A stretch of DNA of 64,000 nucleotides from an uncultured Acidobacteriota bacterium (GTDB lineage Bacteria; Acidobacteriota; UBA4820; DSQY01), in contig CAVYWK010000022.1 in assembly GCA_963772255.1 (NCBI GenBank), forward strand, positions 65,388 to 129,387, in the 5' to 3' direction. Below, one piece after another: positions 41,124 to 56,312 of this stretch. A program made the position numbers and the translations under genes. Position 1 is the first letter of the stretch; every line of letters begins with the position of its first letter. The notes below the pieces were generated by a model. The model made no database searches, was not told the origin of the DNA, and saw nothing but the letters and a program-made list of their open reading frames with translations.

Positions 41124-41350
41124 AGATTTCCCCTCGCGACTGAGCCGTCCTTCAATTGTTTTTAATTATACTCTCATGAGAAGAGTCAACGCCCTGGGAC
41201 ACCCCTCCAATTCCACCCCGGCGGCACTCCCAGGGCGCCTTAGCAAATGGTTTTCCGCCCGCCCTCGTGGTTCCTCGGGATATCGGGCTCGCGGGGTCAT
41301 GGGGTTGGGGATTTGCTTTTACCCCATCCCCCCATTTCCCTACCTCCCCC

Positions 41351-41475
41351 TCTATCTCTCCGGTACCACCTTGTACCCGTACGCGACGACGCCGGACTCC
41401 CCGGCCTCCTAATCTTGCGGATCTCCAGAGCGACTTTGAGGCCGATGGCCAGGCGCTCGGGCTCGCAGTCGGCGA
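41351..41475 (-). pseudogene. orphan, frameshifted copy of the last ~40 codons of the DUF35 gene
   Basis: It aligns to 43441-43566. The inner 38 nt are identical. The outer ~88 nt carry 13 substitutions (mostly silent or conservative) plus a 1-nt deletion. With the deletion repaired it reads DCEPERLAIGLKVALEIRKI.EAGESGVVAYGYKVVPER-stop. Confidence 0.85.
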
Positions 41476-43343: not shown

Positions 43344-43440
43344 GCTTTGCCGCTTTGCTTCTTTGCTTCTTGCTTCTTTGCTTTCCTTGCTTCTTCTTTG
43401 TATCTCTTCGTGGCCTCGTGGTCCCGTGGGCTCGTGGATC
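43343..43440. repeat. pyrimidine-rich short-period arrays (GCTTYTT-type 7-9 nt units, then four CGTGGNNN octamers)
   Basis: The sequence cgctttgccgctttgcttctttgcttcttgcttctttgctttccttgcttcttctttg ... cttcgtggcctcgtggtcccgtgggctcgtgg lies directly downstream of the DUF35 stop. Confidence 0.75.
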
Positions 43441-43441
43441 T

Positions 43442-43837
43442 CTATCTCTCCGGTACCGCCTTATACCCGTACGCAATAACTCCCGACTCCCCGGCCTCCT
43501 GGATCTTGCGGAACTCCAGGGAGACCTTGAGGCCGATGGCCAGGCGCTCGGGCTCGCAGTCGGCGATCTGGCACAGGAGGCGCGTGCCGTCGCTCAGCTC
43601 CACGACGCCCATGCAGTAGGGGGCCTCATCCGAGAAACCCCTGGGGGGCGTTCTGATAACGGTATGTGAGATGACCTGACCCTCTTCGGGCAGAGTGTAG
43701 GCCTTGAACTTGCGGCTTTGGCAATCATCGCAGATCAGGCGCGGGGGGAAGAAGACCTTGCCGCACTTGGCGCACTTGGCCGCTTCCATGCGGTAGCGCT
43801 GGGGGGTGTTCCTGCGGACGATGGCTGGCGTGAGCAT
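43442..43837 (-). CDS. DUF35 OB-fold/zinc-ribbon protein (scaffold of the archaeal-type thiolase/HMG-CoA synthase complex)
   Basis: 131 aa. It has the zinc ribbon CAKCGKVFFPPRLICDDC followed by an OB-fold part. Its ATG overlaps the thiolase stop. Confidence 0.85.
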   Translation of the reverse strand: MLTPAIVRRNTPQRYRMEAAKCAKCGKVFFPPRLICDDCQSRKFKAYTLPEEGQVISHTVIRTPPRGFSDEAPYCMGVVELSDGTRLLCQIADCEPERLAIGLKVSLEFRKIQEAGESGVIAYGYKAVPER

Positions 43838-54563: not shown

Positions 54564-54612
54564 TCACCGTTCCTTATTCCCACCTACGTACCTACTCACC
54601 TACTCACGCCCT

Positions 54613-54654
54613 TCACACCGCTTCTACCGCCATGGCGACCCCATTTCCTCCCCC
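54613..54654 (-). pseudogene. displaced, diverged copy of the thiolase 3' end ([13 protein letters not shown]-stop)
   Basis: It differs from the in-gene copy (55051-55092, [13 protein letters not shown]-stop) at 12/42 nt. Six of the differences are silent third-position changes. It is followed by a period-8 array (CCTACTCA type, 54581-54610). Confidence 0.8.
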
Positions 54655-54829
54655 CAGGTCGCGCCTCACGCGCTCCCCCAGGGGGCCTCAGCCGGCCCCC
54701 TAGGGCGGGCCCTTCGTGCCCTGTGACCCCCTGCCCTCATGCGGGAAGCCCTTCGCTCGGGGGAACCTCCTCGTTCCCCCGCACCCCCTCGCCGCCTCGG
54801 CGGCAAATCGCCAAGGTCCGCCCGCTGAA
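54655..54829 (-). mobile_element. ~175-bp GC-rich structured element E' (distal copy)
   Basis: It is homologous to 54872-55050. The ~75 nt next to the gene-end copy are near-identical. The remaining ~100 nt are diverged but keep an 8-bp hairpin through a compensatory change. Confidence 0.7.
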
Positions 54830-55050
54830 CTACATCGATTCGATGGCCATGGCGACGCCGTTCCCGCCGCCCAGGCGTCGCGCGCAAGCACGCTCCCCCC
54901 AGGGGGGCTCTGCCGCCCCCCTAGGGCGGATGCTTCGCATCCTGTGACCCCGGGCCCTCCCGTCAGGAGACCTCTGCTCGGGGGAACCTCCTCGTTCCCC
55001 CGCACCCCCTCGCCGCCTCGGCGGCAAATCGCCAAGGTCTGCCCGCTGAA
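54830..55050 (-). mobile_element. second exact copy of the thiolase 3' end (54830-54871) plus ~179-bp structured element E (54872-55050)
   Basis: 54830-54871 is identical (42/42) to 55051-55092. E contains perfect hairpins GGGGGAAC-ctcctc-GTTCCCCC (54980-55001), AGGGGGGC-tctgcc-GCCCCCCT (54901-54922) and GGATGC-ttc-GCATCC (54928-54942). Confidence 0.75.
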
Positions 55051-56234
55051 CTACATCGATTCGATGGCCATGGCGACGCCGTTCCCGCCGCCGAGGCACA
55101 GGCTCACAATCCCCCTCCGGGCGCCCCGGTCCTTCATGGCGTAGAGGAGGGTGAGCAGGCAACGGGTGCCCGATGCGCCGATGGGGTGCCCCAGGGCCAC
55201 GGCACCGCCGTTCACGTTCACCTTTTCGGCGGGAGGCCCAGGACCTTGAGGAGGGCGCAGGACTGGGCTGCGAAGGCCTCGTTGAGCTCGAAGAGGTCCA
55301 CGCTTTTCAGGTCCCAGCCCGCCTTGGTTGCCGCGGCCCGCACGGCGGGTTCAGGGGTCATCATGACCCACCGGGGTTCGAGCCCAGAAGTGGCGTAGGC
55401 CACGATGCGCCCCAGCGGAGCCACGCCCTTCTTCTCCGCCACAGACGCCGTGGTCACCACCACCGCCGCCCCGCCGTCGTTGATTTGGCTCGCGTTCCCC
55501 GCGGTCACTACGCCGTCCTTCTTGAAGGCCGGGCGGAGCTTGGCCAGGCCCTCGAGGGAGACATCGGCGCGGATACCCTCGTCCGCGCGGAACTGGACGG
55601 GGTCCCCCTTCTTCTGCGGGATGGGCACGGCGAAGGTCTCCCCGTCGAACCTGCCCGCAGCCCACGCGGCGGCGGCCCGGCGGTGGCTCTCCACGGAATA
55701 GGCGTCCATCTCCTGGCGGGAGATCTGATGCTCGCCGGCCACGAGCTCGGCGGTGAGTCCCATGTGCTGGCCATCGTATGCGTCGGTGAGGCCGTCGGCC
55801 ACCAGGGAGTCGGTCACCTCCCCGTGTCCCAAGCGGAAGCCCGTGCGCCCCTGCCTCAGCAGGTAGGGCGCGTTGGACATGGACTCCATGCCGCCCGCCA
55901 GGATCAACGCCGCGTCTCCCGCCCTGATGGCCTGGGCCGCCAGCATGACCGCCTTGAGCCCCGAACCGCAGACCTTGTTCACGGTGAAGGCGGCCACCGA
56001 GACGGGCAAGCCGGCCTTGAGGGCCGCCTGCCGCGCCGGGTTCTGTCCCACTCCCGCCTGGAGGACGTTGCCCAGGATGACCTCTTCTACCTCTGCGGGA
56101 TCCACCTTGCCGCGCGAGAGGGCCTCCCGGACGGCCACCGAACCGATTTCAGGTGCGGTCATGGCCGCCAGCGGGCCCTGGAATTTGGCGATGCCCGTTC
56201 GGGCTCCTGCGAGAATGACGATGGGATCCGACAT
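55051..56234 (-). pseudogene. bacterial-type acetyl-CoA C-acetyltransferase (thiolase II), one frameshift near the 3' end
   Basis: Starts [20 protein letters not shown] (GGAGGA upstream) and has [14 protein letters not shown] 55218..56279 stops after ..GLPPKR. Adding one base at ~55227 restores ..[60 protein letters not shown]-stop (55051). Confidence 0.85.
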
Positions 56235-56312
56235 GGTGTCCTCCTGGGGTGATGGGTGGGGGTTAGAAGCCTTCCTCATGCCACGGTGCGACCATGTCCC
56301 GTGAGCGGAACG

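Follow-up and report, generated by a model that had tools for sequence, protein, structure and literature searches.

Within a 64,000-nt stretch of an uncultured Acidobacteriota genome (contig CAVYWK010000022.1, positions 65,388–129,387, assembly GCA_963772255.1; hereafter, the window), the 3′ end of a thiolase gene is followed by two hairpin-dense elements, E and E′, which alternate with additional copies of the end of the gene itself. This raises the question of what the two elements are and how pieces of a gene came to flank them. A sequence-only reading of the window suggested that E and E′ function as a folded nucleic acid, perhaps a small RNA transcribed with the thiolase 3′ untranslated region (UTR) or a DNA hairpin recognized by a recombinase or transposase. 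From the analysis given below, the view that E and E′ belong to a previously undescribed family of structured DNA repeats, limited to one Acidobacteriota family, is well-supported.

Distribution and Structure of the Repeat Family

E and E′ belong to a GC-rich repeat family with a unit of ~135–160 nt that forms five different hairpins. Using BLAST and nhmmer, we found 13 copies in the 3.49-Mb host genome, ten of which are full length; this genome (G000) is 86% complete, and all data used here come from metagenome-assembled genomes (MAGs). Among the 40 relatives searched, the element was present in 21 of the 24 genomes of the same family, across six genera; the other 16, which represent different families within the order, class, or phylum, lacked it. 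Scanning species-representative genomes for a sequence pattern gave 26 loci, 25 from Acidobacteriota MAGs, one labelled Ca. Aminicenantes; the single exception to Acidobacteriota was a locus labelled Gaiellaceae. A covariance model (CM) built on eight copies recovered 81, which are distributed over 65 loci of about 30 Acidobacteriota MAGs. A search of viral contigs and plasmids yielded no copies, Rfam at E ≤ 10 returned only two chance matches (E = 4.1 and E = 8.6), neither of them within the element, and literature searches found no account of such an element. The same junctions recur in assemblies from different groups and assemblers, which argues against an assembly artefact.

In the CM alignment, standard pairs fill 92.1% of cells, compared to 81.5% for column shuffles, and 29 of the 37 pairs vary on both sides (287 cells, compared to 103 in shuffles). 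Sliding the 3′ partners by 1–3 columns as a control brought pairing to ~50%; the alignment was fitted to the model and so favors structure, and the margin over the slid controls is large nonetheless. Folding of E and E′ likewise beat dinucleotide shuffles on both strands (z −2.8 to −3.6), and motifs in the loops and single-stranded regions are conserved. The element begins precisely with 5′-GTCGCGC at many targets and ends with ...CCCC(T)TCGAC-3′, the exact TCGAC occurring in about half of the copies and the thiolase copies reading TCGCC.

The stems quoted in the sequence-only reading are present as described, both in E (AGGGGGGC, 54901–54908; loop TCTGCC; GCCCCCCT, 54915–54922) and in E′ (AGGGGGCC, 54680–54687; loop TCAGCC; GGCCCCCT, 54694–54701), and the pair that is swapped between them (C-G to G-C) proved to be a family-wide polymorphism, with CG in 38 copies and GC in 28 (columns 70/144). 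The hairpin GGGGGAAC-ctcctc-GTTCCCCC also occurs twice (54760–54781 and 54981–55002). While the letters of a further proposed hairpin, GCCGCC-tc-GGCGGC, are found at 54791–54804 and 55012–55025, they mostly represent another feature, as the arm at 55015–55025 is an inverted copy of the thiolase site at 55087–55097. The central claim of a folded nucleic acid with a function gained support: five hairpins covary among 79 distinct copies, the support grows as more sequences are aligned, copies abound beyond the window (13 in the genome and 81 by CM), and no Rfam match explains the element.

Clustering by flanks placed about 60 arrays at at least 25 different host sites. These are mostly the 3′ ends of protein genes that point at the element, among them two thiolases and an asd-like gene, together with the 3′ ends of tRNA-Gly, tRNA-Asn, and another tRNA, and at two targets (t05 and t14) the 5′ end of a gene running away from it. 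The right end of the element always faces the adjacent gene, placing it antisense at 3′ ends and sense at 5′ ends, and all copies within one locus share their orientation. This difference in orientation with respect to transcription speaks against the element working as a cis-acting RNA within the host transcript.

Two sites were found in both occupied and empty states. The element is present at the thiolase site of 13 family genomes; at least six have the site empty, and in these cutA, a terminator, and the thiolase stop codon directly succeed one another. At a second site, termed geneX (contig C1), the host genome is the sole occupied congener, with four other members of the genus empty, and the site is occupied in other genera too. 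For t07, which has a copy without duplication, no clean empty site was obtained, the sole element-free congener having a replaced gene end. Two element-free geneX sites (L127 in G007 and L129 in G019) nevertheless carry a 15–17-nt solo tail, CTTCGCCGCGCCGCC, which abuts the stop codon and exactly matches the tail of the element subfamily occupying this site in G015 and G011; this may be a footprint of element loss.

Gene-End Duplications and the Inverted Junction-Site Copy

Direct repeats of 28–117 nt flank nearly every copy with enough flanking sequence. The gene-side repeat is part of the gene, and the far repeat, a displaced gene end, is contiguous with the native downstream sequence of empty-site genomes, giving an overall order of flank, displaced gene end, element, X′, short spacer, the gene from its boundary to a junction site X, and the rest of the gene. 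The duplicated segment spans exactly from the gene boundary to X, with the boundary formed by a stop codon, the 3′ end of a tRNA, or a point a few nucleotides ahead of an ATG. At at least 14 independent targets, the outer edge of the repeat lies 0–6 nt from the stop codon or tRNA end; it falls at the CCA end in the tRNA-Asn target and 6 nt before the ATG in a 5′-end target, where the element tail provides the Shine-Dalgarno sequence. Some copies are without duplication (L039, L067, L068, and L081), and some arrays start with the element and have no left gene end (L035, L040/L089, L082, and L084), such that empty, duplication-less, element-first, and gene-end-first states are all seen. The state of the displaced gene end varies: some are 100% identical, while others are decayed, have lost a part, or are missing altogether.

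The differences between displaced and gene-attached copies (arms) were compared in 16 pairs from 13 targets. Of the 73 differences, 15 fall in first, 8 in second, and 50 in third codon positions (p = 9 × 10⁻¹⁰ versus a uniform distribution), with 47 synonymous and 19 non-synonymous codon changes, and where the stop codons differ, the displaced copy still holds a stop (5/5). A duplicate-then-decay model, where the displaced copy decays neutrally and the gene copy takes synonymous changes only, fitted poorly (p = 2 × 10⁻⁴; p = 0.002 with one pair per target). In the outermost displaced copy of the window, H″, 11 of 43 positions differ from the real gene end, eight of them third positions (seven synonymous and three non-synonymous codons); its source lineage was not found among the 24 family genomes, the best match being 34/43. 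The third-position bias and the retained stops argue that the displaced copies are diverged alleles that evolved as working gene ends in another lineage, and not a decaying target-site duplication (TSD). The duplication would stop at the gene boundary because homology between diverged genomes ends there.

Two simpler accounts of the displaced copies were rejected. Plain tandem duplication does not fit, as E and E′ fall in different sublineages and gene ends flank single copies at other loci as well. Read-through translation of the displaced copy does not fit either, as the spacing between copies, counted by hand, is divisible by three at only about 5 of the 12 loci.

Gene-end copies were also noted elsewhere in the window. 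A ~2-kb sulfatase gene that has its own terminator lies between two repeats of 126 nt (41350–41475 and 43440–43566, 89–94% identical), both copied from the 3′ end of a DUF35-type gene. The repeat begins 2 nt before the reverse-complemented stop codon CTA, and there is no hairpin element there, which suggests that gene-terminal, allele-like duplications are more general in the host genome and that the element may be one recurrent passenger, or promoter, of them.

Right after the element terminus lies X′, the reverse complement of 8–12 nt of the gene at the site that ends the duplicated segment. The best inverted match that the 26-nt tail makes with the gene's first 190 nt averaged 8.7 nt across 17 targets, compared to 6.45 nt in cross-target controls, and reached at least 10 nt in 7 of the 17, compared to 1.5% of controls (Mann–Whitney p = 8 × 10⁻⁸). 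In L057 and L060, the inverted copy runs a few nucleotides past the junction into the gene, which indicates that it was templated on the intact gene, and X′ is also found in duplication-less copies (e.g., L039). Two alternative stems are possible: one between the tail and the gene, enclosing the last 30–110 nt of the gene, and in duplicated loci another between the tail and the displaced copy, enclosing the element.

These features bear on whether the element acts as a structured non-coding RNA, either a 3′-UTR stabilizer or terminator, or an antisense or guide-like RNA with the displaced end as its targeting part and the element as its scaffold. Strong covariation in five helices and conserved loop and single-stranded motifs would be expected of such an RNA, G.U pairs are enriched on the + strand in two helices, and pairing of X with X′ in the mRNA would hold the final codons and the stop codon within a stem. 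The mismatch types, however, leave the folding strand ambiguous, with G.T exceeding A.C overall (103 versus 56) and A.C exceeding G.T in the five best hairpins (36 versus 15), such that neither strand is favored. Other points against an RNA are the lack of an Rfam match, the variable strand with respect to host transcription, and, from a scan of the element, the absence of promoter-like or terminator-like signals; a guide in particular would not be maintained where displaced ends are decayed, partly deleted, or absent, as they often are. We therefore consider an RNA improbable, and of the two options in the sequence-only reading, the small RNA fared worse on account of its variable strand, missing signals, and recombination-marked flanks, while the DNA hairpin with a role in recombination fits better.

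Candidate Mobilizing Systems and a Proposed Mechanism

A non-autonomous transposon, i.e., a MITE (miniature inverted-repeat transposable element), palindrome-associated transposable element (PATE), or repetitive extragenic palindromic (REP)-like sequence moved by a transposase and leaving unusually long and variable TSDs, would account for the precise GTCGCGC left end, the short terminal inverted repeat (TIR) GTCG/CGAC, the dispersed copies, and some perfect duplications, and Y1 transposase genes (Y1_Tnp) are present in 22 of the 24 family genomes. These genes are, however, equally common outside the family (12 of 16 genomes). None of the three Y1 loci in the host genome carries the element, and at the one examined for flanking repeats the gene sits within a different inverted repeat, unrelated to the element. 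The link to REP/RAYT (REP-associated tyrosine transposase) or IS200/IS605 systems drawn from the sequence alone was thus not borne out. We found neither a REP palindrome in inverted pairs nor a RAYT gene flanked by, and co-distributed with, the repeat. The termini share 4 nt (GTCG/CGAC), short of the TIR of ~10 nt or more and the fixed short TSD of a MITE, and the left flanks (GGC, CGC, CAG, TCC, and others) lack the fixed tetra- or pentanucleotide of an IS200/IS605 PATE, which would leave no duplication. A true TSD would also decay randomly, whereas here 68% of the differences fall in third positions and all stops are kept; no known transposase gives 28–117 bp duplications or an inverted target copy, and transposition does not explain why the duplications start at stop codons, tRNA ends, and start regions alike. 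We regard a transposon as very unlikely. On contig C1 (297557–298547; L178 2058–3048), we did note a Y1 (IS200-like/RAYT-like) transposase gene of ~300 aa bracketed by a 28-nt inverted repeat, AAGGGTCAGGTCTTGTATTTTAACAATT, which is a separate REP-like system unrelated to the element.

The arrays also resemble those of integrative elements, and the unit of replacement gene end, spacer, and element may be considered a miniature form of one that targets gene termini (a remnant or a non-autonomous derivative), moved in trans by a site-specific recombinase crossing at the short core X beside the left end of the element, with the arrays being att accretions. A substitute gene end is a pattern shared by tRNA-targeting genomic islands. 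In the case of the e14 prophage, icd extends into the prophage and icdC, a C-terminal pseudogene, lies at its far end, with mainly synonymous differences between the two (PMC13626634). As with e14 and phage 21 in icd and with tRNA islands, the gene here is kept intact by a supplied end while the native end is displaced, the differences are mostly synonymous, the duplication stops at the gene end, and tandem accretion occurs. Direct repeats at gene termini, one native and one element-borne, were indeed found; the arms are homeologous, tRNA 3′ ends are among the targets, and the sulfatase cassette of the window has its DUF35 gene-end copies starting from the stop codon. Unlike these systems, the inserted DNA is only the ~150-nt hairpin element, which is present at >25 unrelated targets that include 5′ gene ends, and it carries an inverted copy of the crossover site, which is not a feature of known att sites. 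The junction sequences also differ among targets and share no common core, the element is absent from the viral contigs and plasmids searched, and no integrase or recombinase lies beside the copies inspected, the survey of trans-acting enzymes being non-exhaustive in a genome that is 86% complete. Taken together, we find an integrative element unlikely, if less so than an RNA or a transposon.

An autonomous parent element was sought and rejected, given that the partial copies on contigs C6 and C32 adjoin kdp genes and a small DUF4160/HTH island with no recombinase. On C32 (3135–4862; L061), a truncated element (positions 15–88) is followed by a ~1.6-kb lower-GC insert, bounded by ACTTGCGATTTACTTGCGAT repeats, which encodes DUF4160 and HTH_37 proteins (toxin–antitoxin-like). 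Directly after it come a tRNA-Asn fragment, a complete element copy, and tRNA-Asn in intact form. Contig C6 has a nearly identical left junction, next to kdpB and kdpC.

We also considered a retroelement similar to a short interspersed nuclear element, in which the element RNA would be reverse transcribed and joined to tRNA or mRNA 3′ ends. This would agree with the one precise and one ragged end of the element and with duplicated segments that end at the tRNA CCA, but mRNAs do not end at stop codons and 5′-end targets exist. The reverse transcriptase domain RVT_1 is absent from the host genome and present in 8 of the 24 family members, and reverse transcriptase therefore does not accompany the element through the genomes that carry it, making this origin extremely improbable. 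A diversity-generating retroelement was rejected on similar grounds, as >25 genes and tRNAs are targeted, the differences are synonymous and not A-specific, and there is no reverse transcriptase.

The reading we prefer, and to which we give roughly an even chance, is that the element is a DNA-level recombination cassette at gene termini, in which strand switching would build the arrays and homologous recombination would move the units. The element would land beside a gene boundary, and templating on a nearby GC-rich coding site would turn its unconstrained, GC-rich tail into that site's perfect complement, in a manner similar to quasipalindrome correction. The stem X′:X could then form, enclosing the last 30–110 nt of the gene. 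A nascent strand ending at X may switch to X′, copy four bases (GTCG, complementary to the CGAC of the right terminus), and come back at the left end of the element, itself beginning with GTCG; this would yield the precise junction X|GTCGCGC and a tandem unit of element, tail, and gene end, i.e., an element-first array. A fragment comprising gene end, element, and gene end plus gene would possess two homologous arms and could enter an empty allele of a related lineage. Such entry by ordinary homologous recombination would displace the recipient's own gene end, resulting in a gene-end-first array with allelic arms, and for this reason the copies would differ as alleles do and their homology would stop at the gene boundary. 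Unequal crossing-over and gene conversion would subsequently expand, contract, and homogenize the arrays.

Several points weigh against this cassette reading. All steps of the mechanism are inferred from end products in MAGs, and the first arrival at a new gene boundary is left unexplained by the model. The strand switch predicts a CGAC right end, and only about half of the copies end exactly in TCGAC. Several arms are 100% identical (77 nt on C1, and those of L036, L041, and L055), for which a conspecific donor or gene conversion would be needed, and the decay model serving as the null in the arm comparison is approximate. A trans-acting site-specific recombinase is possible. Finally, a recombination breakpoint at the array of the host genome is only weakly suggested: the cutA-side flank is 70–72% identical to congeners, no nearer than to other genera, compared to 77–83% on the thiolase side, which is only a hint given that the left flank evolves faster in all pairs compared. 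No recombination tract was visible within the thiolase gene at 60-nt resolution.

A bolder form of the cassette reading, which is tentative and which we think rather doubtful, is that of a transposase-free selfish cassette, which would write an inverted copy of a coding site, duplicate by strand switching, and invade empty alleles using gene ends as homing arms.

The Array in the Window and Its Counterparts

The array in the window occupies 54613–55097 and reads H″-E′-H-E-thiolase on the + strand (Table 1). Tandem Repeats Finder reports a 221-nt unit present in 2.1 copies over 54629–55097. E and E′ share 75.7% identity across their left ~100 nt and 98.3% identity across a 119-nt right block, which starts at the GGGGGAAC hairpin, comprises helix 7, the tail, and the spacer, and reaches into the gene-end copy.

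Table 1. Coordinates of the array components in the window.
Feature	Position (nt)	Strand	Remarks
H″, thiolase 3′-end copy displaced farthest from the gene, 46 nt	54613–54658	−	Own stop TGA (reverse complement TCA, 54613–54615); encodes 14 residues; 71.7% identity to the real gene end
E′, distal element copy	54658–54812	+	nhmmer and CM matches
Hairpins of E′	54676–54705, 54707–54721, 54758–54781	+
Tail of E′, including X′	54794–54804	+	100% complementary to 55087–55097
17-nt spacer, E′ tail to stop of the middle gene-end copy	54813–54829	.	16/17 identical to the spacer at 55034–55050
H, middle copy of the thiolase 3′ end	54830–54875	−	Reverse-complemented stop CTA, 54830–54832; 45/46 identical to the real end
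E, gene-proximal element copy	54877–55033	+	Begins GTCGCGC; nhmmer and CM matches
Hairpins of E	54897–54926, 54928–54942, 54979–55002	+
X′ in the tail of E, GCCTCGGCGGC	55015–55025	+	Inverted thiolase junction site, 11 nt; 100% complementary to 55087–55097
17-nt spacer, E tail to thiolase stop	55034–55050	.
True thiolase 3′ end	55051–55097	−	Reverse-complemented stop CTA, 55051–55053; supported by C-terminal translation and orthologous loci
X, junction site, GCCGCCGAGGC	55087–55097		Within the thiolase 3′ end; duplicated copies stop here

A maximum-likelihood tree of 71 copies (150 columns), which is of weak resolution, groups the copies by target gene (37 label changes versus 51.5 when shuffled, with 0 of 200 shuffles as low). 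The tree also holds lineage-specific clades spanning several targets, which imply moves to new boundaries or concerted evolution. The thiolase site carries at least four different sublineages; E clusters with the thiolase-associated elements of three congeners, G001, G002, and G005 (Shimodaira–Hasegawa-like approximate likelihood-ratio test support of 99), and E′ falls elsewhere. In G001 and G002, the junctions lie at slightly shifted positions and the arms are 100% identical within each genome, suggesting turnover or gene conversion at the shared site. The simplest history of the window is that an E-type unit was inherited with the genus and then duplicated, which accounts for the 98.3% block, and that H″ and the left 100 nt of E′ were replaced by DNA from another lineage.

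The thiolase gene itself (55051–56279, − strand) is split into two frames in the host genome. An open reading frame of 353 aa stops at 55218 and the last 54 codons lie in another frame, placing the break near 55216–55230, ~165–175 nt before the stop; this is either a frameshift or a sequencing error. Beside H″, at 54581–54607, lie short tandem repeats of 7–8 nt (CACCTACG), and similar 7–8-nt repeats (GAGTGAGG, GGAAGTGA, and AGACGRTAG) occur at L067, L083, L160, L166, and other loci. In the host bacterial family, such short repeats often fill the intergenic DNA by stop codons, frequently just outside arrays.

Apart from the integrated prophages and islands discussed above, the element invites comparison to several known systems. 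Like REPs, bacterial interspersed mosaic elements, and REPINs (paired REPs), it is a GC-rich, structured, extragenic repeat, often lying between convergent genes, that is family-specific and present in tens of copies per genome. REPs, however, are single palindromes of 20–40 nt headed by GTAG; they occur as inverted pairs and flank a RAYT gene, whereas the element has five hairpins, no GTAG, no RAYT link, and gene-end duplications that REPs are without. Integron attC sites are likewise recombination sites in which structure is conserved beyond sequence and which act as a folded single strand; an attC site, though, is one imperfect palindrome used by IntI at a G|TT core in cassette arrays, and neither an integron integrase context nor this core motif is seen at the junctions of the element.

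Closer to the proposed mechanism, quasipalindrome template switching perfects imperfect inverted repeats, and stems bring distant sites together for slippage. To our knowledge, such switching is known for point mutations and small indels, not for building arrays of gene ends and elements, and its role at the element is inferred only. Homology-facilitated illegitimate recombination and the merodiploid formation of natural transformation resemble the present case, in that a one-sided homologous anchor lets foreign DNA join and repeats can direct duplications as DNA is taken up (PMC3240628 and PMC3784515); those events are sporadic with random joints, while here the element terminus is constant and the cassette is recurrent and heritable.

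On a conservative reading, modelling the repeat family would stop confused gene calls and pseudogene labels on displaced gene ends. If the cassette reading is true, small structured repeats would be able to spread without an enzyme of their own by borrowing host gene ends as recombination arms. This would explain att-like arrays that lack integrases, provide a marker for recombination between diverged uncultured lineages, and offer a case of hairpin-driven template switching that builds heritable structures, not point mutations. Were the selfish form of the cassette to hold, it would represent a new mobility route for non-coding DNA, one that both marks and promotes inter-lineage recombination at gene boundaries.

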